From Fidelibacterota bacterium (lineage in GTDB: Bacteria > Fidelibacterota > Fidelibacteria > Fidelibacterales > Fidelibacteraceae): DNA of 24,000 bases. The position numbers and the translations under genes are program-made. Shown one piece after another: positions 2,070 to 18,679 of this stretch (positions are counted from its first letter, which is position 1; every line of letters starts with the position of its first letter). The stretch covers positions 2,456-26,455 of the forward strand of contig JAQVTR010000023.1 in assembly GCA_028699915.1 (NCBI GenBank), written 5' to 3'. Under the pieces are notes generated by a model that was not told the DNA's origin, ran no database searches, and saw nothing but the letters and a program-made list of their open reading frames with translations.

Positions 2070-4574
2070 ATGTCGTTTAAAAACATGTTCAGGTATCGCG
2101 GCAAGTTCACAAAAATGGTCGGAGAAGAAAAGATCAAGACCTATGAACAGTTGTACGAACATCTTCGCGGTGCCGTCGAAAGCGGGGACCTGCCGCAGCA
2201 CGAGAATTATTTGAATGGCAATGAGCTTGCGGAAAACATTTACAGTAAAAAATACTACTTGCGCGATTATGACGGCAATCCCATTGAAGAGCGTCCGGAA
2301 GATGTTTTCATGCGCATTGCCTCTTTCGTGGCGGCGCAGGAAGTTTCCAAGATCAAGCAAAAGGAATGGGCCGAGCATTTTTACCGGGATCTGTACAACG
2401 GATACTGGATCGCGGGCGGCCGCGTGCTGGCGGGAGCGGGGGACCTTTACCGGCTGAAAACGCTGGCAAACTGTTTTGTGACGGGCATTGCCACGGACAA
2501 CATTGAATCCATTTACAAAACGGCGGCGGAGTGCGCCCGGACCTATTCTTACGGCGGCGGTGTCGGCGTGGATATCACGCCGCTGCGTCCCCGGGATTCC
2601 ATTGTGCACAACGCCGCGGACAGTTCCACCGGCGCAGTATCCTTTATGGAGCTTTTTTCCATGACCACGGGACTGATCGGTCAGTCCGGCCGCCGCGGCG
2701 CGCTGATGCTGACCATCGATATCAAGCATCCGGACATTTTTCATTTTATCAGGGTCAAAAAAACGCCCAACTGGGTCACCCGGCAGATCGTGGAACAATG
2801 CAGCTGGAGCGGTAAATTCAGCGAAGAACAGCTGTCCGAGATCAAACGGCAGGTCATGGACAACACCCAGATCCGTTTTGCCAATATTTCAATCAAGGTT
2901 TCCGACGAATTCATGCAGGCGGTCTGGGAAGAGAACGAATACAAGCGCGACAGCATTCTGGTTTACCGCAAACGCCATAAACTGCGCTTGACCGAAGCGC
3001 TCCAGGATAAAGGTTATTACTATTCGCTGGGGATCCCGAGCAAGGACGTTGAGGACTACGAATTGCTCAAGACCTTTGCGGATACCGAAAAAATGAACGC
3101 CTGGCTCGAGGAGCAATTCGGCCGCAATGTCCGGGAAGAGGACCTGCGGGACAAGAACAAGCGGGACGTTTACGGAGATTACCTGCTGGATGTGGGGAAG
3201 GGGGACTGGGAGCTTTCCTTGCGCTACGCCGGTGATTTTCTCCTGTATTTTGCTTCGGAACCTTCCGGGGAGATCCGGGATCTTGTCAAGGCCCGCGATA
3301 TCTGGAACCTTTTCGTGGAATCGAATTATCACTCGGCGGAGCCCGGACTGATCTTCTGGAGCAAGATGAGCAAATATTCGCCGTCCAATTATGTGGACCG
3401 GCCCATTATTTCCACCAATCCCTGCGCCGAGGTTCCGCTGGAAGACGGCGGAGCCTGCAATCTGGGATCCATTAACCTGAGCCGCTTTGTGCGCGACGGA
3501 TTTACGCCGAAGGCAAAGATCGACTGGGAGCAGCTAAAGATATCGACCGGGAACTGTGTGCGTTTTCTGGATAATGTGGTCAGTTGGAACGAACTGCTGA
3601 ACCCGCTGGAAAAACAACGCATTGCCGCGCAGGCCACGCGCCGCCTCGGACTGGGGATCATGGGGATTGCCGACATGCTCTTCCAGCTCGGGCTGGATTA
3701 CGACTCGGAGCAGGGTGTTGAGCTGATGGAAGAGGTAATGAGTTTCATCAACGACATTGCCTATATGACCTCTTCGCAGCTGTCAAAGGAAAAAGGCCAC
3801 TGCGAGAGCTTCGATTATGATAAATACGAAAAAGGGCCTTTTTTCCGGGAATCGCTGTCCGAAGAAACCCGCGAGCATATCCGGAACTTTGGGCTGCGCA
3901 ACATCGCGCTGACCTCGATCGCACCGACAGGTACCATCAGCAATATAATCAAATCCTTCGAGATCGGGAAAACCAATTACATCGGCGTCAGCGGCGGCAT
4001 TGAACCGCTGTTCGCCCTCTTTTACAAGCGTCGCGCGGAATCCTTCGACAACCAGTTTTTCCAGGTCTTCCATTCCACGCTGCAGGCCTATCTGGACCTG
4101 AACAATCTGAACGACAAGATCAAGGACGTCAAAAAGGAATTCGATCTGGAGGAAATTCTGCCCGCGTACTTTTTTAAGACGGCGCATACCATATCCTACG
4201 ACAAACGGCTGCAGATCCAGGCCGTCTGCCAGCGCTATATCGACCATTCCATTTCTTCGACCATCAATCTGCCCGAAGACATCGAGCCCGAAGTGATCTC
4301 GACGATCTATCTGGAAGCCTGGTCCAAAGGGCTGAAAGGCATTACCATCTACCGGGACGGCAGCCGCTATCCTATTCTGAGCCGGGAGGAGAAAAAGTCG
4401 GATTTTCAGGAATACCGTGAAAAGCGCTTTGAAATGGAGATCGGCAAAGACAAGGTGGTTGAATTCACCGGTGACGAGGTTATGGTCCTCGAAGACGGCA
4501 CCCTTTCGACCCCCTTCCATTATTTCCGCAAGACCCTGGGTGTGAGCGATCCCAAAGAGATCGAGGTGGTCTGA
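2070..4574 (+). CDS. nrdJ: Class II (adenosylcobalamin-dependent) ribonucleotide reductase, catalytic core (NrdJa-like)
   Basis: 834-aa ORF with a GAGGA SD about 5 nt upstream. RNR barrel motifs are present: TNPCAEVPLEDGGACNLGSINL (active-site Cys loop), SIAPTGTIS, SSTINLP and GITIYRDGSR. There is no R2 partner and no glycyl-radical motif, which fits class II. Confidence 0.9.
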   Translation: MSFKNMFRYRGKFTKMVGEEKIKTYEQLYEHLRGAVESGDLPQHENYLNGNELAENIYSKKYYLRDYDGNPIEERPEDVFMRIASFVAAQEVSKIKQKEWAEHFYRDLYNGYWIAGGRVLAGAGDLYRLKTLANCFVTGIATDNIESIYKTAAECARTYSYGGGVGVDITPLRPRDSIVHNAADSSTGAVSFMELFSMTTGLIGQSGRRGALMLTIDIKHPDIFHFIRVKKTPNWVTRQIVEQCSWSGKFSEEQLSEIKRQVMDNTQIRFANISIKVSDEFMQAVWEENEYKRDSILVYRKRHKLRLTEALQDKGYYYSLGIPSKDVEDYELLKTFADTEKMNAWLEEQFGRNVREEDLRDKNKRDVYGDYLLDVGKGDWELSLRYAGDFLLYFASEPSGEIRDLVKARDIWNLFVESNYHSAEPGLIFWSKMSKYSPSNYVDRPIISTNPCAEVPLEDGGACNLGSINLSRFVRDGFTPKAKIDWEQLKISTGNCVRFLDNVVSWNELLNPLEKQRIAAQATRRLGLGIMGIADMLFQLGLDYDSEQGVELMEEVMSFINDIAYMTSSQLSKEKGHCESFDYDKYEKGPFFRESLSEETREHIRNFGLRNIALTSIAPTGTISNIIKSFEIGKTNYIGVSGGIEPLFALFYKRRAESFDNQFFQVFHSTLQAYLDLNNLNDKIKDVKKEFDLEEILPAYFFKTAHTISYDKRLQIQAVCQRYIDHSISSTINLPEDIEPEVISTIYLEAWSKGLKGITIYRDGSRYPILSREEKKSDFQEYREKRFEMEIGKDKVVEFTGDEVMVLEDGTLSTPFHYFRKTLGVSDPKEIEVV

Positions 4575-5206
4575 TGTTAAATTACAGCAAAGAATACCGC
4601 ATCCGGGAAAAGAAAACGGAAAAAAAAGACGCCGAACGGCAAGCGCAGCCGCTGGTGCTTAAGCGTCCCGACGTGGTGGATGCCAAAGTCTATAAGATCA
4701 AAAGCCCCTTTGTAAAATTCAACGTGTATGTTACGCTTGGATACATCATGGAATACGGCCATAAACGGCCGATCGAAATTTTCATCAACTCGAAAGACCT
4801 GACCCATTCGGCGCAATATGCGGTGCTGACCCGCCTGATCTCGGCGATATTCCGCCGCGCCGGCGACGCCCAGTTCATTCTGGAGGAGCTGCGCAGCATC
4901 TACGACCCCAACGGCGGATATTTCAAGGACGGCAAATACATCCATTCCTTTTATTCCGAAGTGGCGGACGTGATCGAGCGCTTCTTCCGGGACGAAGGAA
5001 TTTTACAGGCGCCGGAACAGGGCGAACAGATCAGTCTGCCCATTAAGACCCAGCTGAGTTCAGTGCATACCGTTACCGACGAAGAAGACGATCCCACCAT
5101 GAACAATACTTTCAAGATCTGTCCCGAATGCAACAATCGCACCATGAAATACGATAACGGCTGCGAGTTCTGCGTACAGTGCGGATACACGAAATGCGAT
5201 AAGTGA
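4574..5206 (+). CDS. Separately encoded class II RNR C-terminal domain (NrdJb-like; TSCPD-type region lacking its cysteines) plus a Cys-rich zinc-ribbon tail
   Basis: 210 aa. The start overlaps the nrdJ stop by 1 nt (TGATG), with GAGGTG upstream. The segment RPDVVDAKVYKIKSPFVKFNVYVTLGY...RPIEIFINSKDLTHSAQYAVLTRLISAIFRRAG...ILEELRSI corresponds to the block that follows YRDGSR in single-chain NrdJ enzymes (RP..L.G.TYKIKT..G.LY.T.. / P.E.FIN.GK / RLIS.ALR). The C-terminus is CPECNNRTMKYDNGCEFCVQCGYTKCDK. Confidence 0.75.
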   Translation: MLNYSKEYRIREKKTEKKDAERQAQPLVLKRPDVVDAKVYKIKSPFVKFNVYVTLGYIMEYGHKRPIEIFINSKDLTHSAQYAVLTRLISAIFRRAGDAQFILEELRSIYDPNGGYFKDGKYIHSFYSEVADVIERFFRDEGILQAPEQGEQISLPIKTQLSSVHTVTDEEDDPTMNNTFKICPECNNRTMKYDNGCEFCVQCGYTKCDK

Positions 5207-7253: not shown

Positions 7254-7633
7254 AAAGTCGGCGAGATGACCGCTCCATCCCGACCCCGAATTCCGGGGCG
7301 GGACCGGGGAGGAAAGTCCGAACTCCGCAGAGCAGGATGCCCCGTAACACAGGGAGCCCGTGAGGGCTGGATAGCGCAACAGAAAGCAAACGTCCCCGAT
7401 TCGTCGGGGTCACGGTGAAACGGCGAGGTAAGAGCTCACCAGTTCCGGCGGCAACGCCGGAAGCTCGGCAAGCCCCATCCGGAGCAACACAAATCGGAAA
7501 GTATGCCCTGCTCGGGTTAACGCTTTCCTGGTCGTGGCTGGACCGGCCCGGAAACGGACCGGCAAGATAAATGGTCATCGTCCTTCCGCCATTTGGCGGA
7601 CAGGGCAACAGAATTCGGCTTATGACCGGCTTT
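7254..7633 (+). ncRNA. rnpB: RNase P RNA, bacterial type A
   Basis: P1 pairing AAAGTCGG (7254-7261) with CCGGCTTT (7626-7633). Universal P4 strands GAGGAAAGTCCG (7309-7320) and ACAGAATTCGGCTTAT (7608-7623). Also CAACAGAAAGCAAAC, GGTGAAACGG, GGTAAGAGCTCACCAG and CAAGATAAATG, all collinear with E. coli M1 RNA. Confidence 0.95.
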
Positions 7634-7670
7634 AAGCTTTTTGACCTTTCAATGCGAAATGAGCATAAGT

Positions 7671-14261: not shown

Positions 14262-14273
14262 GCCGGGGGCGGT

Positions 14274-14291
14274 CTTCGGGGCTTCCCGAAG
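14274..14291 (+). terminator. Stem-loop after mazG (CTTCGGG-GCTT-CCCGAAG), no U tract
   Basis: A 7-bp perfect stem with a tetraloop, 13 nt after the mazG stop. It lacks a T run, so it may be a stabiliser or a Rho-dependent site rather than an intrinsic terminator. Confidence 0.3.
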
Positions 14292-14312
14292 TCAATCCGA
14301 CCGGAGATTGGA

Positions 14313-14396
14313 TTGACTCAAATAAATTGACTCAAATAAATTGACTCAAAATATTTGACTCAAATAATTTGCCCCAAACAGATTGCCTCATAAAAA
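14313..14396. repeat. 6 x 14-bp tandem array, unit TTGACTCAAAtaaa decaying to TTGCCCCAAAcaga / TTGCCTCATAaaaa
   Basis: Units start at 14313, 14327, 14341, 14355, 14369 and 14383. The core TTGACTCAA is a 9-bp palindrome around its central base. The array is preceded by the hairpin GTCAATCC (14291-14298) / GGATTGAC (14310-14317). Confidence 0.95.
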
Positions 14397-14408
14397 ATAC
14401 GCATTTAT

Positions 14409-14957
14409 TTATTCTTCATAATGATAAGTAAAAGCTTCCACGTATTCCCTGTATTTCTGTGAGTTCGGAAAACAATTCTGACGAATATCAGGTAAAAATA
14501 ATTTACTTTTACGTGCATTGATCCACTCCCGGTAATTTGAGTAAGGCCAGTCTTCCGGTTTTTCAGCCAGGTTTGCGTACACCGGATTCATGTGGATGTA
14601 CTTGCTGAGCTTGATCATATATGTTTTTGTTTCCACGACGGTATGCTGCAGTGGTGACCTGAAAATAGGACCTTTCCGATCGTGTTGTTTGTTGAAATAC
14701 CTCGCATAAGAAATGAAGGTGTAATTAAACAAGCGGTAAATCTTTATGTCACTATCTTGTCTGATCAAAAAATGGTAATGATTGGGCATCAGACAATAGC
14801 TGATAATACCCGCAGGAATTTTATTGATTCGATCCGTGAAAATTTGCAGGAAATAATTGTAATCCTCATCATCGTAAAATAGTTTCAGATCATCAATTGC
14901 ATGATTGAAAACATGGAAAACCCTTCCTGTTGTAAAATCATCCTGTGAACATCGCAT
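14409..14957 (-). CDS. Y1 HUH transposase-fold protein (IS200/IS605 TnpA / REP-associated tyrosine transposase, RAYT-like)
   Basis: 182 aa from the ATG (complement of 14955-14957), which sits 6 nt after AAGGAGG. It has the HUH motif in CLMPNHYHFLI and the catalytic-Tyr helix in KYIHMNPV. Hand GC counts on six 60-nt lines of the gene gave 30-50 %, mostly 30-43 %, against about 55 % in a mazG line. Confidence 0.85.
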   Translation of the reverse strand: MRCSQDDFTTGRVFHVFNHAIDDLKLFYDDEDYNYFLQIFTDRINKIPAGIISYCLMPNHYHFLIRQDSDIKIYRLFNYTFISYARYFNKQHDRKGPIFRSPLQHTVVETKTYMIKLSKYIHMNPVYANLAEKPEDWPYSNYREWINARKSKLFLPDIRQNCFPNSQKYREYVEAFTYHYEE

Positions 14958-15054
14958 CTTCGTCCTCCTTAATTTTATTTTATACGGTAGTAATTTAATA
15001 TAAAAAATCATTCAGCCTGTGCCGGTAAATAAAAAGTGTGATGAAGGTTATAAA

Positions 15055-15110
15055 TTTGAGTCAAAATATTTGACTCAAAACATTTGCCCCAAAACATTTG
15101 CCCCAAAACA
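15055..15110. repeat. 4 x 14-bp array of the same family (TTTGAGTCAAAATA, TTTGACTCAAAACA, 2 x TTTGCCCCAAAACA)
   Basis: Same period, same orientation and same TGACTCA-to-GCCCCAAA gradient as the array at 14313-14396. The first two units form a perfect 11-bp stem with a 3-nt loop (15055-15065 / 15069-15079). Confidence 0.9.
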
Positions 15111-15111
15111 T

Positions 15112-15120
15112 CCCCCCCCC
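15112..15120. repeat. Homopolymeric C9 tract
   Basis: Nine consecutive C, immediately after the repeat array and 9 nt upstream of the -35 hexamer at 15130. Confidence 0.95.
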
Positions 15121-15129
15121 ATTTTTCCC

Positions 15130-15157
15130 TTGACTTCTCACGCGCTTTTCGTATATT
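15130..15157 (+). promoter_or_regulatory. sigma70-like promoter of the DUF134 operon (TTGACT - 16 nt - TATATT)
   Basis: Hexamers at 15130-15135 and 15152-15157 with a hand-counted 16-nt spacer, 33 nt upstream of the ATG at 15190. Confidence 0.55.
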
Positions 15158-15180
15158 ATTATTGGCATATGCCAATAATA
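15157..15180. promoter_or_regulatory. 24-bp perfect palindrome TATTATTGGCATATGCCAATAATA (putative operator)
   Basis: All 12 base pairs of symmetry were checked individually. It spans from the last base of the -10 hexamer to the first base of the AGGAG SD. Confidence 0.6.
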
Positions 15181-15189
15181 GGAGCAAGA

Positions 15190-15609
15190 ATGCCCAGACC
15201 GCCAAAAACACGATGGATATACGGCGACTTCGAAGCGGAGTATTTCAAGCCGCGCGGCCGCAGAATGAGCGAAATAGACGAGATCAGCCTGGAAGCCGAT
15301 GAACTCGAAGCACTGCGGCTTGCGGACCTGGAAGAATTGTATCAGAACGACGCCGCCGAAAAAATGGGTGTTTCCCGGCAGACCTTTGGAAATATCCTGA
15401 AACATGCGCACCAAAAAATTGCCGATGCGCTGATCCATGGGAAAGCCATCCGCATGTTCCCGCCCTCCGGCGGACAACAACACTGCCATCGCTGCGGACA
15501 ACCCTGGTCGGAAACCATCCAGGGACCGGCAGCCGATGAATGTCCCGAATGCGCAAGGGATCGGCACGGGTATGGTCACGGGCACGGGCGGGGCAAACGA
15601 ATAAAATAA
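15190..15609 (+). CDS. DUF134 (UPF0251) family putative DNA-binding protein with C-terminal CxxC...CxxC zinc ribbon and His/Gly tail
   Basis: 139 aa from the ATG at 15190 (AGGAG 5 nt upstream). It has the family-typical N-terminus MPRPPKTRW...FKPRG and a sigma-r4-like HTH (LEALRLADLEELYQNDAAEKMGVSRQTFGNILKHAHQKIADAL). The tail is HCHRCGQPW-x15-CPECARDRHGYGHGHGRGKRIK. Confidence 0.8.
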   Translation: MPRPPKTRWIYGDFEAEYFKPRGRRMSEIDEISLEADELEALRLADLEELYQNDAAEKMGVSRQTFGNILKHAHQKIADALIHGKAIRMFPPSGGQQHCHRCGQPWSETIQGPAADECPECARDRHGYGHGHGRGKRIK

Positions 15610-15634
15610 GAACAAACATAGAAAGGAGAATATT

Positions 15635-15934
15635 ATGCCACGAGGAGACAGAACCGGACCCGACGGAATGGGCCCGATGACGGGAAGGGGATTGGGACTT
15701 TGCAGGAACTATGACAGTCCCGGCTATGTTCGGCGCGGATTTGCCAGCGGTCGCGGAGCGGGATTCGGCAGAGGATTGGGACGCGGCCTTGGCTGGCGCT
15801 CACGCGCTTTTTATGATTCCCGTACTCCGGCAGCCGAAACCGACGATCTGCAGATGCTGAAAGAAGAATCCCGGCGCCTGAACGATGATCTTAAGTCGAT
15901 CAACTCCCGGATCAGGGAAATAGAAAAAACCTGA
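15635..15934 (+). CDS. DUF5320 family protein (Gly/Arg-rich N-terminus, C-terminal coiled coil)
   Basis: 99 aa with an AAGGAG SD. The N-terminus MPRGDRTGPDGMGPMTGRGLGLC matches the family signature MPRxDxTGPxGxGPMTGRG. It is followed by GRG repeats and the helix DDLQMLKEESRRLNDDLKSINSRIREIEK. Confidence 0.7.
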   Translation: MPRGDRTGPDGMGPMTGRGLGLCRNYDSPGYVRRGFASGRGAGFGRGLGRGLGWRSRAFYDSRTPAAETDDLQMLKEESRRLNDDLKSINSRIREIEKT

Positions 15935-16008
15935 AGCCGCTAAACAAATCGGCAGAACACACTGACGAAAACCGCAGTTGATATCGGCCGGCAATGGGAA
16001 ATTTATCT

Positions 16009-16890
16009 ATGAAAATCAGTATTGCGAGCGGAAAAGGCGGAACCGGAAAAACAACACTGGCAAGCAATCTGGCGATGTACCTGTCGGAATTTCAGGATGT
16101 CGTTCTTGCGGATCTGGATGTGGAGGAGCCGAATTCCGGACTCTTTATCCGGGCAGCGGCTTTGCACGAAGAAATATTCAATACCATGATACCGGAATGG
16201 CAGCAAGAGGTCTGTACGCTCTGTGACCGCTGCCGGGAAGTCTGTAATTTTAACGCCATTACCCGCATCGCGGATGAGATCCTGGTATTCCCGCAGCTCT
16301 GCCATTCCTGCTATGCCTGTTCGGAACTATGTCCGGTCAACGCCCTGCCGATGAAACCCAAAAAATGCGGGATCATAAGGCATTTTCGGCGGGAAAAGCT
16401 GGATTTCATCGAAGGCGTTCTGGATATCGGCGAAGAACAGGCCGTGCCGCTGATCGCAGGAACCCTGAGCTATATCAGCGAACATTTCCCGGCCGGGATA
16501 TTGCGTATTGCCGATGCGCCGCCCGGAACCTCCTGCCCCATGATCGCGGCACTTAAAGATGCCGATTATGTAATATTGGTAACCGAACCAACCCCCGTGG
16601 GGCTCTATGACCTGGGCCTGGCGGTCGATACCGTGCGCGCACTCAAAAAGAATTTTGGGGTTGTGCTCAACCGGGACGGGATCGGGAACAGCGATGTGGA
16701 AACCTATTGCAAAAAAGAACATATTCCGCTGATCGCACGTATCCCCCAGCAGCGCCGCATTGCGGAACACTATGCCGAAGGTAAATTGCTCTATAAAAAC
16801 ATCCCGGAGGTCCGCAGCGCACTGGAACAAATCAGCCGGACACTTGGCCTTGTAATCGGAACACGCAATACGGAAAAGGGCCGCCAATGA
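16009..16890 (+). CDS. MinD/ParA-superfamily P-loop ATPase with inserted 2x[4Fe-4S] ferredoxin domain (COG1149-type), paralogue 1
   Basis: Deviant Walker A IASGKGGTGKTT; CTLCDRCREVC and CHSCYACSELCP (CxxCxxCxxxC(P) x2); PPGTSCPMIAAL; VILVTEPTP. The start is taken at MKISIASGKGG (16009); the ATG at 15994 is an alternative. Confidence 0.85.
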   Translation: MKISIASGKGGTGKTTLASNLAMYLSEFQDVVLADLDVEEPNSGLFIRAAALHEEIFNTMIPEWQQEVCTLCDRCREVCNFNAITRIADEILVFPQLCHSCYACSELCPVNALPMKPKKCGIIRHFRREKLDFIEGVLDIGEEQAVPLIAGTLSYISEHFPAGILRIADAPPGTSCPMIAALKDADYVILVTEPTPVGLYDLGLAVDTVRALKKNFGVVLNRDGIGNSDVETYCKKEHIPLIARIPQQRRIAEHYAEGKLLYKNIPEVRSALEQISRTLGLVIGTRNTEKGRQ

Positions 16891-17768
16891 AAGAAATAGT
16901 AGTCATCTCCGGAAAAGGCGGGACCGGGAAAACCTCGGTAACGGCTTCTTTTGCCGTGCTTGGAGAAAAGGATCTGGTGGTTGCGGACTGCGATGTGGAT
17001 GCGGCGGACATGCACGTGTTCCTGGATCCCGATTATCGGGAGAAGCATGATTTTTACAGCGGCGAACTGGCGCAGATCGATCCGGAGACCTGTATCCAGT
17101 GCGGGAAATGCGCGGAGGTTTGCCGCTTTAATGCGATCGATATTGTTAACGGGAGCCATCATGTGAAAGAACTCGATTGCGAAGGTTGCGGCTACTGCGC
17201 CAGGGTTTGTCCCGTTAATGCCATTAAGAATATCCGGAATCATGTGGGCTACTGGTACCGCTCCCGGATCAAGACCGGAGCCGGAATGATCCACGCCAGA
17301 ATGAAGGTAGGTGCCGAGAATTCCGGAAAGCTGGTGGCCAAAGTCAAACAGGAAGCCGCGAAACTCGCGGAAAGCACGAATAAAAAATATGTCCTGGTCG
17401 ACGGTTCTCCGGGCATCGGCTGCCCGGTGATATCCTCGCTTTCCGGAGCCGCCTATGCCGTGCTCGTCACAGAACCCACACTGTCGGGCTTGCATGATCT
17501 GGAACGCGTTTACAGCGTGGTCGAGCGGTTCAGAATTCCGGCGGGATGCATTATCAATAAGGCGGATCTGAATATCCGGAACCGGGATAAAATACGGGAA
17601 TTTTTAAAGGACAAGGCCATCGACTTGCTGGCGGAACTGCCTTACGATCTGCGTATCTCCACCTTGATGGTCGGGGGAAGGACCATGGTGGAAGATCCCG
17701 CGATCGAAAGCGGAGCAATGCTCGGGAAAAGCTGGAATTATATCCTCAATAGATTAAAAATGAATTGA
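16887..17768 (+). CDS. MinD/ParA-superfamily P-loop ATPase with inserted 2x[4Fe-4S] ferredoxin domain (COG1149-type), paralogue 2
   Basis: ATGA overlap with paralogue 1. VISGKGGTGKTS; CIQCGKCAEVC and CEGCGYCARVCP; SPGIGCPVISSL; AVLVTEPTLSG. Confidence 0.85.
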   Translation: MKEIVVISGKGGTGKTSVTASFAVLGEKDLVVADCDVDAADMHVFLDPDYREKHDFYSGELAQIDPETCIQCGKCAEVCRFNAIDIVNGSHHVKELDCEGCGYCARVCPVNAIKNIRNHVGYWYRSRIKTGAGMIHARMKVGAENSGKLVAKVKQEAAKLAESTNKKYVLVDGSPGIGCPVISSLSGAAYAVLVTEPTLSGLHDLERVYSVVERFRIPAGCIINKADLNIRNRDKIREFLKDKAIDLLAELPYDLRISTLMVGGRTMVEDPAIESGAMLGKSWNYILNRLKMN

Positions 17769-17784
17769 AAAGAAAGGAAAGACC

Positions 17785-18123
17785 ATGAAAATAGCTTTCA
17801 GTGCAAGAGGAAAGGAATGGGAGGATGCCATTGATCCGCGTTTCGGACGCAGTGAGTATTTTCTTGTTTATGACGAAGAAAGCCAGGAGCTGTCTGTCAT
17901 TGATAACCGCGACGTTGTGCAGGAAGCGCATGGCGCGGGTCCGAGGACCGCTCAGCGCCTGCTGGATGAAAAGGTTTCCGTACTGGTCACCGGAAACGGA
18001 CCCGGCGGCAATGCGGCCGGTGTGCTGAGCCGCGCCGGTATCAAGGTTTATGCGGGAGCCGGAGCTATGAGCATCCGGGAAGCTTACCAGGCATACAAGG
18101 CCGGAAAGCTGCCTTTGTATTAA
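17785..18123 (+). CDS. NifX/NifB-C-terminal-type (dinitrogenase FeMo-cofactor-biosynthesis domain) small protein, subtype 1
   Basis: 112 aa: MKIAFSA...IDPRFGRSEYFLVYD...VLVTGNGPGGNAAGVLSRAGIKVY, the typical pattern of the Nitro_FeMo-Co (PF02579) domain. Confidence 0.8.
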   Translation: MKIAFSARGKEWEDAIDPRFGRSEYFLVYDEESQELSVIDNRDVVQEAHGAGPRTAQRLLDEKVSVLVTGNGPGGNAAGVLSRAGIKVYAGAGAMSIREAYQAYKAGKLPLY

Positions 18124-18228
18124 ATCCGGCCTTGTTAATAAGGACAGGAACCTGTAAGTTAATTCCGGATCATTCCGTCCGTTGCGGAAATATATAAATG
18201 AAATTAAAAAAAAAAGAGGAGTATCAGA

Positions 18229-18564
18229 ATGATCATTGCAGTACCGGTTAAGGGAGGACTTTTATCGCAGCATTTCGGGCATTGTGAAAGTTTTCGGCTT
18301 TTTCATACGGACAAAGATAAAAACATTCTTCGCAACGAAGACCTGACGCCGCCGCCGCACGAACCCGGGGTTCTGCCGAAATGGCTTGCGGAACAAAAAG
18401 CGAACGTGATCATCACCGGCGGCATGGGAATGCATGCGCAGCAGCTGTTTGCGCAGAACGGGATCGAAGTTGTGCTCGGTGCTCCGGCGGGTGATCCGCT
18501 ATGTATTGCTGAGGAGTGGCTGAAAGGTTCCCTGGAAAGCGGAGCCAATCCCTGCGATCATTAA
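18229..18564 (+). CDS. NifX/NifB-C-terminal-type small protein, subtype 2 (His/Cys-bearing)
   Basis: 111 aa with a GAGGAG SD: MIIAVPV...LSQHFGHCESFRLF...VIITGGMGMHAQQLFAQNGIEVVLG...GANPCDH. Confidence 0.8.
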   Translation: MIIAVPVKGGLLSQHFGHCESFRLFHTDKDKNILRNEDLTPPPHEPGVLPKWLAEQKANVIITGGMGMHAQQLFAQNGIEVVLGAPAGDPLCIAEEWLKGSLESGANPCDH

Positions 18565-18581: not shown

Positions 18582-18606
18582 AACACCCCGCCATCGGCGG
18601 GGTGTT
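18582..18606. terminator. 11-bp GC-rich hairpin shared by the converging NifX-like operon and tRNA-Glu
   Basis: AACACCCCGCC-ATC-GGCGGGGTGTT. On the minus strand it is followed by TTTTCC, which makes a good terminator 1 nt after the tRNA 3' end. On the plus strand it is followed by GTATCCCC, a poor U tract. Confidence 0.6.
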
Positions 18607-18607
18607 G

Positions 18608-18679
18608 TATCCCCTAGGGGATTCGAACCCCTGTTGCAGGAATGAAAATCCTGAGTCCTGACCACTGAACGAAGGGGAC
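18608..18679 (-). tRNA. tRNA-Glu (anticodon UUC)
   Basis: The reverse complement GTCCCCTTCGTTCAGTGGTCAGGACTCAGGATTTTCATTCCTGCAACAGGGGTTCGAATCCCCTAGGGGATA folds as a cloverleaf: a 7-bp acceptor stem (G1.U72 wobble), D stem GTTC/GGAC, anticodon stem CAGGA/TCCTG with loop TTTTCAT (anticodon TTC), and T arm AGGGG-TTCGAAT-CCCCT. It closely resembles E. coli tRNA-Glu. CCA is not encoded. Confidence 0.93.

Follow-up and report, generated by a model that had tools for sequence, protein, structure and literature searches.

Introduction

The orange protein (ORP) cluster of Desulfovibrio is the closest described counterpart of the six-gene operon analyzed here, which occupies positions 15,130–18,564 of a 24,000-nucleotide stretch of Fidelibacterota DNA (GenBank assembly GCA_028699915.1, contig JAQVTR010000023.1, forward strand 2,456–26,455; hereafter, the window). 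In Desulfovibrio, the cluster consists of two operons, orp5-orp4-orp3 and orp7-orp8-orp9, which are driven by sigma54 and the Fe-S redox sensor OrpR (PMC6345978, PMC8359166). The MinD-like proteins Orp3 and Orp4 contain two [4Fe-4S] ferredoxin motifs each. Orp3, Orp4, and Orp8 co-purify, are Fe-S proteins, and receive clusters from MrpORP, whose Di-Nase domain binds a cluster; a homologue of Orp5 binds [2Fe-2S], and expression of the orp genes is confined to low redox potential (PMC6345978, PMC8359166). Orp8 is the orange protein, isolated with a non-covalent Mo-Cu-sulfide cluster, [S2MoS2CuS2MoS2]3- (cited in PMC6345978), and the gene cluster was called anaerobe-specific in 2011 (Fievet 2011, as cited in PMC6345978 and PMC8359166).

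A second related system is IssA of Pyrococcus furiosus, in which an IPR003731 domain is followed by a cationic, Gly- and aromatic-rich tail that contains the only cysteine of the protein. IssA stores thioferrate and can rebuild [4Fe-4S] ferredoxin (PMC5524996).

The window operon, whose genes are termed g1 to g6 (Table 1), is probably the Candidatus Neomarinimicrobiota copy of the anaerobe-specific ORP cluster, and the mechanism proposed below belongs to the same explanation. A previous sequence-only reading of the window had presented the gene set as new and experimentally uncharacterized, which does not hold, as the same gene set is the published ORP cluster of Desulfovibrio (PMC6345978, PMC8359166). 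Its statement that the cargo and the client enzyme are open is still correct for the physiological cargo and client.

Identity of the operon

The six co-directional genes that had been read from the plus strand at 15190–18564 are all present as open reading frames (ORFs). The same six genes are called in the public annotation of a Candidatus Neomarinimicrobiota metagenome-assembled genome (MAG), GCA_041654295.1, and the window is identical to part of its 119-kb contig. In that annotation g3 starts at 16009, so that g3 and g4 each encode 293 aa. The proposed family names were upheld by Pfam: DUF134, DUF5320, CbiA/ParA plus Fer4 for the two ATPases, and Nitro_FeMo-Co for the two last proteins. 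Below, homologues of g3 and g4 are referred to as A3 and A4, and those of g5 and g6 as N5 and N6.

The order g2-g3-g4 appears to be that of orp5-orp4-orp3 in Desulfovibrio, and a Maridesulfovibrio locus (L066) has the order DUF5320-A3-A4. The N-terminus of DVU2105 taken from a published primer, MPYGDG, fits the DUF5320 start MPxGDxTGP, and the C-terminus of DVU2103, likewise taken from a published primer, GVWNQLLALVAA (VWNQLLALVAA), resembles KSWNYILNRL of g4.

The two Nitro_FeMo-Co proteins, which do not align with each other, match different members of the described cluster. For g5, the PDB matches are 1RDU (TM1290, E 1e-17), 2WFB (the D. gigas orange protein, E 9e-13, residues 2–111), and 1EO1 (MTH1175, E 2.7e-10). 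Like N5 proteins generally, g5 is devoid of cysteine, and it carries the motifs DPRFGR, GAG, and TGN-G-NA; it is of the orange protein/Orp8/IssA-clade type. In turn, g6 scores 123 bits against the NCBIfam model "iron-sulfur cluster carrier protein MrpORP", matching model positions 265–365, i.e., the C-terminal third, with a whole-protein cutoff of 450. The full-length identity of g6 is 50% with the Di-Nase domain of DVU2109 (E 1e-36) and 53% with the Dde_3202 one (E 3e-44); both of these sequences were taken from a published supplementary alignment. The motifs HFGHCE and PPPHEPG and the C-terminal CDH are common to g6 and MrpORP, and within the N6 proteins His15, Cys19, His44, Cys109, and His111 are conserved at 68–92%. 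We therefore class g6, from these matches, as a stand-alone version of the cluster-binding C-terminal Di-Nase domain of MrpORP (Orp9). The window thus holds an ORP-type cluster with a split MrpORP, of which only the Di-Nase half is encoded locally.

Residues 1–62 of g2 are cationic, with 27% Gly, 18% Arg, and 12% aromatic residues. This part contains the single cysteine, Cys23, which is 79% conserved; the L066 homologue has four cysteines. The C-terminus of g2 is a coiled coil.

The ATPase pair

All motifs that the sequence-only reading had singled out in the ATPases were confirmed: SGKGGTGKT, the ferredoxin cysteines (eight in number), and the cysteine of PGxxCP, with a conservation of 97–100% among 71 A3 and 78 A4 homologues. 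The Walker A motif of g3 is SGKGGTGKT, followed by two CxxCxxCxxxC motifs and the switch-II sequence PPGTSCP (Cys181). The corresponding features of g4 are a cysteine in DCDVDAA, two ferredoxin motifs, and the switch-II sequence SPGIGCP (Cys179). In both families the eight ferredoxin cysteines are 99–100% conserved, and the switch-II cysteine is conserved in 100% of A3 and 97% of A4. The additional cysteine in DCDVDAA is found in 85% of A4; at the corresponding site, 63% of A3 also have Cys, whereas g3 has Leu. The ferredoxin insert comprises about 60 residues and is located after switch I.

The best PDB sequence matches of the ATPases are to MinD, and PDB searches returned no solved structure covering a whole ferredoxin-inserted ATPase. 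On the NCBIfam MinD model, g3 and g4 score 54–56 bits (cutoff 202), and Pfam Fer4_NifH stays below its cutoff in the ATPases (16.6 bits versus 25). Both lack the CxxC motif of Mrp, score 38–48 bits on the MrpORP model (cutoff 450), and are not Mrp orthologues.

A heterodimeric Fe-S ATPase had been proposed from the gene pair, and this proposal is supported by natural fusions and by modeling. At least 120 A3-A4 fusions of about 600 aa each were listed, and such fusions account for about 40 of the top 150 representatives. An AlphaFold2 (AF2) model of one of them, P0278, built from 111 aligned fusions, has a pLDDT of 88 and a pTM of 0.81; only the linker (residues 268–288) is disordered, and the two halves are predicted to pack as one unit. 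A Foldseek search placed MinD, FlhG, and FleN first (TMt 0.64–0.72). The sole whole-length match was the fused pseudo-dimer ArsA, followed by NifH, BchL, and HypB of the ATPase type.

Conservation, neighbors, and fusions

The g4 family is large: a word-indexed search found more than 8000 proteins at E ≤ 1e-10, and an exhaustive search of representatives yielded 749 clusters at 50% identity and E ≤ 1e-30. A scan in which each species was represented by one genome gave 80 bacterial and archaeal loci. Their hosts belong to Marinimicrobia, Calditrichota, Bacteroidales, Spirochaetes (including Treponema denticola), Campylobacterota, Cloacimonadota, Dehalococcoidia, Planctomycetota, Desulfobacterota, Clostridia, Altiarchaeota, and Methanocellaceae. 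Six-frame ORFs of 81 loci (numbered with the prefix L) were classified by profiles for which the six window proteins served as seeds. In 73 of the 81 loci A4 comes directly after A3, and in three more the two are fused; the modal overlap is 4 nt (27 loci). Within 5 kb of the pair, N5 was found at 66 loci, N6 at 60, DUF5320 at 47, and DUF134 at 27. The order of all six genes is identical in another member of Neomarinimicrobiota (L003). Such an arrangement of genes goes far beyond what chance would produce.

Mrp-like P-loop proteins without ferredoxin inserts occur at 23 of the 81 loci, and Mrp-N6 fusions occur at four (L023, L046, L074, and L080). The fusions stand beside A3-A4 pairs and pass the MrpORP cutoff (498–539 versus 450 bits), and free Mrp halves at L011 and L021 score 320–347 bits on the N-terminal part of the same model.

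Pfam-confirmed fusions also join the ATPases to the small proteins. P0107 combines A4 with Nitro_FeMo-Co, and P0279 combines Nitro_FeMo-Co, A3, and A4. N5 is fused to DUF5320 at L037, L049, and L136, and N5, DUF5320, and N6 form one chain at L046. Together with a DUF134 fusion described in the next section, all six families are linked by natural fusions. The tie between the ATPases, the two NifX-fold proteins, the DUF5320 adaptor, and the DUF134 regulator, which had been read from the window alone, is therefore borne out by gene order, fusions, and a conserved candidate operator.

Other families recur beside ORP-type clusters in different phyla, in the flanks of L002, L016, L039, L051, L062, L066, and other loci. 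Along with Mrp-like genes, which as neighbors reach a count of 27 loci, these are Zn_ribbon_8 (21 loci), NifU_N/IscU (18), ARMT1-like/DUF89 (17), radical SAM (15), TrmO_N fused to a CGGC domain (15), MBL-fold (14), and FUR (8). A protein of about 70 aa that combines the N-terminal motif of DUF5320 with a zinc ribbon recurs at 21 loci. The recurrent families may be further members of the system.

Nitrogenase independence, which had been proposed from the window, is upheld. The window, a housekeeping context, contains no nifHDK, nifEN, or nifB. In the 81 loci, no gene of the nif type came to notice; the specific screen there covered only the NifH-type P-loop signature (GKGGIGKS), with one ORF found (L028), and not nifD, nifK, nifE, nifN, or nifB. 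The hosts include Treponema, Bacteroidales, Cloacimonadota, and Dehalococcoidia.

The DUF134 protein and its candidate operator

The sigma70-like promoter candidate and the 24-bp perfect palindrome described by the sequence-only reading were both located (Table 1). The palindrome, with the half-site TTATTGGCAT, sits between the predicted -10 element and the Shine-Dalgarno (SD) sequence, across the expected transcription start. The palindromes found 5' of DUF134 genes in several phyla follow one common pattern, which was expressed as the 20-mer TTATGnnCAT followed by ATGnnCATAA; a match had to agree with the consensus at 13 or more of the 16 bases and to be palindromic in 8 or more of the 10 pairs.

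The first set searched comprised 82 loci and the window (83 sequences, 1.03 Mb), the same set from which the consensus was derived. It contains 22 matches, one per locus, versus 0.26 expected in shuffles, and the sole match in the 24 kb of the window is the one at 15159–15178. Seventeen matches lie directly 5' of a DUF134 gene, about 10–135 bp before the start of the longest ORF. The remaining matches lie 5' of the next cluster gene, within 70 bp at L008 and L059 and at or inside the called ORF start at L032 and L078; at L029 and L048 the motif is about 1 kb from the next cluster gene. With a slightly relaxed threshold, 21 sequences of this set have both the motif and DUF134, 11 have only DUF134, 5 have only the motif, and 46 have neither (Fisher p 2.4e-7). 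At L003, the closest relative, the core AATTGGCATATGCCAGAAAT is kept about 24 bp before the DUF134 start codon (ATG at 470), and the rest of the spacer has diverged.

An independent set was formed by 80 metagenome loci (417 kb) anchored on DUF134 homologues. It gave 57 matches, one per locus, versus 0.32 expected. The site accompanies 51 of 77 DUF134 genes, mostly 20–55 bp upstream. Of the 53 loci with enough flank, 48 have cluster families within 4 kb; N5 is among them at 38 of the 53 and is as a rule the next gene downstream. A LexA box was also considered as the identity of the motif and was ruled out, as the inner bases vary.

The g1 protein, whose exact sequence is listed in NCBI as a DUF134 domain-containing protein, consists of an N-terminal MPRPxKxR arm, a sigma-region-4-like helix-turn-helix (HTH), a Cys4 ribbon (C99, C102, C118, and C121), and a Gly/His/Arg tail. 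The ribbon is conserved in the g1 subfamily, and a Gly/Arg/His tail comes after it. In the AF2 model (pLDDT 82), the HTH matches ECF sigma-4 and DeoR at 0.6–0.7 Å over 40–49 residues; searches of the PDB returned no relative of g1 by sequence and no structural relative of the whole protein.

A search of the available literature found no account of the function of DUF134, UPF0251, or COG1342. The distribution of the motif makes it likely that DUF134 and the 20-bp palindrome are a regulator–operator pair, a relation that is new here. The palindrome probably serves as the operator of an autorepressor, in place of the sigma54/OrpR control known from Desulfovibrio. A repressor role is suggested because of the position of the operator relative to the predicted promoter, which is its sole basis. 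No sigma54-like site was found 5' of the operon, matches elsewhere in the window being at chance level, and no gene for an OrpR-type enhancer-binding activator is present among the window genes.

In a Desulfatibacillum MAG, DUF134 and Nitro_FeMo-Co occur in a single chain (L038:6366–7121, Pfam-confirmed), which suggests that a NifX-fold domain can act as the sensor of a DUF134 regulator.

A cultured relative, Fidelibacter multiformis (L163; AP035449.1, 2078603–2093034), also has DUF134, with 59% identity to g1. Next to it comes a gene for a 118-aa protein without a Pfam match; the two ATPase genes are not adjacent, and a zf-CDGSH Fe-S protein is encoded nearby.

Proposed mechanism and cargo

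We infer that the operon encodes a nitrogenase-independent, ATP-linked metallocluster unit. In the mechanism that we propose, g3 and g4 would form an ATP-sandwich heterodimer in which each subunit holds a pair of [4Fe-4S] clusters and has its invariant switch-II cysteine close to the interface. The heterodimer would dock the cysteine-free carrier g5, which may hold an anionic metal-sulfide species non-covalently, in the manner of the orange protein or IssA. The cationic Gly/Arg/aromatic part of g2, oligomerized via its coiled coil, could help to bind this species. Binding and hydrolysis of ATP, together with electrons from the ferredoxin inserts, would then assemble, reduce, mobilize, or hand over the cluster, and g6, with its Cys and His residues, would serve as the acceptor or as a relay to Mrp-type carriers or apo-proteins. 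Control would be exerted by a g1 dimer that binds the 20-bp palindrome overlapping the -10 element and the transcription start and represses its own operon. Redox or metal-sulfide status is probably conveyed by the Cys4 ribbon, the cationic tail, or a bound protein of the NifX fold, which would make g1 the functional counterpart of the Fe-S-sensing sigma54 activator OrpR of Desulfovibrio.

Judged from their sequences, DUF5320 and the ORP-type protein appear to reproduce the architecture of IssA, a correspondence that is new here. This precedent suggests that iron-sulfide rather than a Mo-Cu cluster is the physiological cargo, and the IscU, Mrp, and FUR neighbors agree with the iron theme. Two IPR003731 proteins of Methanococcus voltae, Mvol_0689 and Mvol_0693, show increased expression when the cells are grown on pyrite, under which condition thioferrate-like iron accumulates in them (PMC8516115); the two genes are four genes apart, a spacing that would fit an ORP-type cluster.

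A further-reaching version of this proposal is put forward tentatively, as a possibility that we think doubtful rather than probable. DUF134 proteins would be a family, not assigned before, of metal-sulfide- or redox-sensing autorepressors whose near-universal operator controls ORP-type clusters in more than 10 anaerobic phyla. The cluster would be a machine powered by ATP and electrons, in which a split IssA-like store, made up of the N5 domain and the cationic tail of DUF5320, lays down and mobilizes inorganic, thioferrate-like iron-sulfide for Fe-S protein maturation. If true, the ORP cluster would be an anaerobe counterpart of ferritin combined with ISC/SUF delivery.

Several points weigh against the assignment and the mechanism. 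The equation of DUF5320 with Orp5/Dde_3197 rests on a six-residue primer-derived N-terminus, synteny, and the published description, and the matching of g3/g4 with DVU2104/DVU2103 on synteny and the primer-derived DVU2103 C-terminus, not on full lengths. The 24-kb window contains no Mrp-like ORF that would supply the Mrp half of MrpORP, and g6 has Ser at the first Cys of the MrpORP motif CxHFGHCE. With a single conserved cysteine in each ATPase subunit at the putative interface, the pair has too few for a bridging [4Fe-4S] cluster of the NifH type. Binding of the palindrome by DUF134 and repression are both inferred. Even in Desulfovibrio, no biochemical activity is known for the ATPase pair, and the authors favor an indirect link to cell division (PMC6345978, PMC8359166). 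Finally, the cargo may be an Fe-S, a thioferrate-like, or a Mo/W/Cu-sulfide species.

Alternative functions

Among the alternatives, a dedicated Mo/W(-Cu) thiometallate system, which would build, buffer, or detoxify Mo/W-S(-Cu) clusters or supply Mo/W enzymes, is unlikely. It would account for the orange-protein type of g5 (2WFB), that protein having been isolated with a Mo-Cu-sulfide cluster (cited in PMC6345978), and a cysteine-free N5 with conserved polar and basic motifs suits an anionic cluster. However, mod, tup, moa, moe, and copper genes and Mo/W enzymes are absent from the window and from the 25 most recurrent neighbor families (10 annotated by Pfam, the rest judged from their sequences). 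The IscU, Mrp, and FUR partners point to iron instead, and the IssA-clade relatives bind iron-sulfide (PMC5524996).

Likewise unlikely is a role of the g3/g4 heterodimer as an ATP-dependent reductase of low potential comparable to NifH, BchL, or CfbC, which would activate or reduce a client enzyme encoded elsewhere and have the NifX-fold proteins as accessories. The pair belongs to the SIMIBI class with a deviant Walker A motif, NifH and BchL are among its structural matches, and four [4Fe-4S] sites per heterodimer make a plausible electron path. Its switch-II cysteine follows the Walker-B aspartate by seven residues, which we take to be the spacing of Asp125 and Cys132 in NifH and count in favor of a reductase. 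Yet no partner of the NifDK, BchNB, or CfbD type occurs in the window or recurs in the loci; the partners supported by fusions are the small NifX-fold proteins, and there is only one conserved interface cysteine per subunit.

It is quite improbable that the MinD-like ATPases are positioning or cell-division proteins to which the small proteins are accessory, as was originally proposed for the Desulfovibrio ORP complex. The closest folds are indeed those of MinD, FlhG, and FleN, and MinD also provides the best PDB sequence matches. In D. vulgaris, loss of orp expression leads to abnormal morphology, MrpORP is found at the cell pole, and C-terminal amphipathic helices have been proposed for Orp3 and Orp4 (PMC6345978, PMC8359166). 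A hydrophobic-moment check of the C-termini of g3 and g4 spoke neither for nor against such helices. On the other hand, the morphology defect could be secondary to Fe-S deficiency. No minC, minE, ftsZ, or flagellar genes are found in the window or recur in the 81 loci; what recurs is NifX-fold, Mrp, IscU, FUR, and radical SAM proteins. The eight invariant ferredoxin cysteines, the switch-II cysteine, and the fusions of the ATPases to Nitro_FeMo-Co also speak against positioning.

Membership in a nif cofactor maturation regulon with its other members outside the window is largely refuted and highly improbable: Nitro_FeMo-Co is common to NifX, NafY, and the C-terminus of NifB, and the ATPases have the NifH superfamily fold, but no nif genes are present in the window, none were noticed in the 81 loci under the limited screen described above, and the affinities of g5 and g6 are to the types of ORP, IssA, and MrpORP, not to NifX or NafY. 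To our knowledge, Treponema denticola, Bacteroidales, Cloacimonadota, and Marinimicrobia are generally without nitrogenase, which was counted against this regulon as well.

Operon layout and flanking features

The coordinates of the operon and its elements are collected in Table 1.

Table 1. Features of the window operon and its borders
Feature	Position	Strand	Description
Sigma70-like promoter candidate	15130–15157	+	TTGACT 15130–15135, 16-nt spacer, TATATT 15152–15157; 10/12 matches in consensus scan, predicted
24-bp perfect palindrome	15157–15180		TATTATTGGCAT followed by ATGCCAATAATA; 20-bp core 15159–15178, candidate DUF134 operator
g1	15190–15609	+	DUF134/UPF0251, 139 aa; Pfam PF02001, E 1.8e-20, 73.7 bits versus cutoff 27
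g2	15635–15934	+	DUF5320, 99 aa, Orp5-like; Pfam E 3.3e-26
g3	16009–16890 (alternative ATG 15994)	+	A3-type MinD-like ATPase, Orp4-like, 293 aa; Pfam CbiA/ParA and two Fer4
g4	16887–17768	+	A4-type MinD-like ATPase, Orp3-like, 293 aa; Pfam domains as g3
g5	17785–18123	+	N5-type Nitro_FeMo-Co, 112 aa; Pfam E 1.4e-20
Hairpin over g5 stop codon	18095–18135	+	11-bp perfect arms; dG -21.3 kcal/mol, z -3.4
g6	18229–18564	+	N6-type Nitro_FeMo-Co, 111 aa; Pfam E 1.3e-16
Terminal GC-rich hairpin	18582–18606		11-bp stem, 3-nt loop; between operon end and tRNA-Glu
tRNA-Glu(UUC)	18607–18679	minus	Convergent with operon; 3' end adjoins hairpin 18582–18606

The ATGA overlap of g3 and g4 (16887–16890) was checked and is present. 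An AGGAG-type SD had been stated for most genes; it is strong for g1, g2, and g6 only, weaker for g5, and not obvious for g3 and g4. The hairpin described as closing the operon exists, but it has no U-run on the plus strand and abuts the convergent tRNA gene; UUUU follows it on the minus strand only. It is therefore at least as much a terminator of the tRNA as of the operon, and is probably the tRNA-Glu terminator or a shared, bidirectional one. The gap between g5 and g6 is unusually long (105 nt) and holds part of the hairpin that covers the g5 stop codon. This hairpin may be an element of mRNA stability or attenuation and could uncouple the expression of g6 from that of the rest of the operon.

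Immediately 5' of the operon promoter, a low-GC stretch (0.40) at 14262–15128 contains a gene for an IS200/Y1-transposase-like (RAYT-like) protein on the minus strand (14409–15011). This gene is flanked on both sides by an 11–14-bp repeat, (A)TTGACTCAAA(T), with four tandem copies at 14312–14364 and an inverted pair at 15055–15079 (9 matches versus 0.7 expected), and TTTGCCCCAAA(A)C(A) repeats come next on both flanks. The element looks like one of the REP/RAYT type.

The flanking genes are housekeeping genes, encoding Rho, class II ribonucleotide reductase (RNR), RecJ, YbeY, CorC, MazG, an M28 peptidase, a LolA-like protein, and MMPL. The annotations of the 24-kb window include neither a nif gene nor another metalloenzyme gene. 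At 2070–5206, the plus strand codes for a class II-type RNR large chain (834 aa) and, downstream with an overlap of 1 nt, for a TSCPD-domain protein of its own (210 aa), which looks like a split-off form of the domain often fused to RNR. A bacterial class A RNase P RNA (247 bits) is located at 7254–7637 on the plus strand, between a CT398-like coiled-coil/zinc-ribbon gene and recJ.

Comparison with known systems

The ORP cluster is among the most widespread "anaerobe-only" gene sets, and the window does not add a new kind of system to it. Rather, it displays a common non-Desulfovibrio configuration, in which all genes form one operon, control is probably by DUF134, and MrpORP is split. The candidate DUF134–palindrome pair offers a testable handle for finding the signal to which the system answers, and the fusions point to an ATPase heterodimer in direct contact with NifX-fold proteins.

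MinD, FlhG, and FleN, the closest solved folds, have the same deviant Walker A motif with a signature lysine, but the window ATPases differ in their ferredoxin insert, their invariant switch-II cysteine, and the absence of MinC/MinE or flagellar partners. The A3-A4 fusions parallel the layout of ArsA, with two halves in one chain. The best mechanistic analogy is provided by NifH with NifX/NafY, where a SIMIBI Fe-S ATPase dimer also stands beside small NifX-fold carriers. The window, however, is without nif genes, its carriers belong to other subfamilies, and its pair is predicted to be a heterodimer with inserted 2x[4Fe-4S] domains, whereas NifH is a homodimer with one bridging cluster and two cysteines per subunit. 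Proteins of the Mrp/NBP35/ApbC type belong to the same P-loop class as g3 and g4. Many loci have an Mrp-type gene within the cluster, either in fusion with N6 or separate from it, and in Desulfovibrio such a protein supplies Orp3/Orp4 with Fe-S clusters; no Mrp protein is encoded in the window.

With IssA and the uncharacterized "IssX" clade (PMC5524996), the window system shares a Nitro_FeMo-Co domain with few or no cysteines and a cationic Gly/aromatic segment with a single cysteine; MTH1175, which g5 matches, is a member of the IssA clade. These parts form one polypeptide in IssA and are separate genes (g5 and g2) in the window, although they are joined in a single chain at L037, L049, L136, and L046. 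Moreover, DUF5320 adds a C-terminal coiled coil, and the window system has an ATPase pair, which IssA is not known to need.

The closest comparison is with the ORP cluster of Desulfovibrio vulgaris Hildenborough and D. alaskensis G20. There, two divergent operons are controlled by sigma54/OrpR and MrpORP is fused, whereas the window, with a host from Neomarinimicrobiota, has one operon, a DUF134 HTH protein with a palindrome, and a free-standing Di-Nase protein without an Mrp/NBP35 half at the locus; no counterpart of orp7 was identified in the window. Common to both are the adjacent paralogous MinD-type ATPases with two ferredoxin motifs each, the Nitro_FeMo-Co protein of the orange-protein type, a Di-Nase domain, and a restriction to anaerobes; the small Gly-rich protein encoded 5' of the ATPases is probably shared as well.

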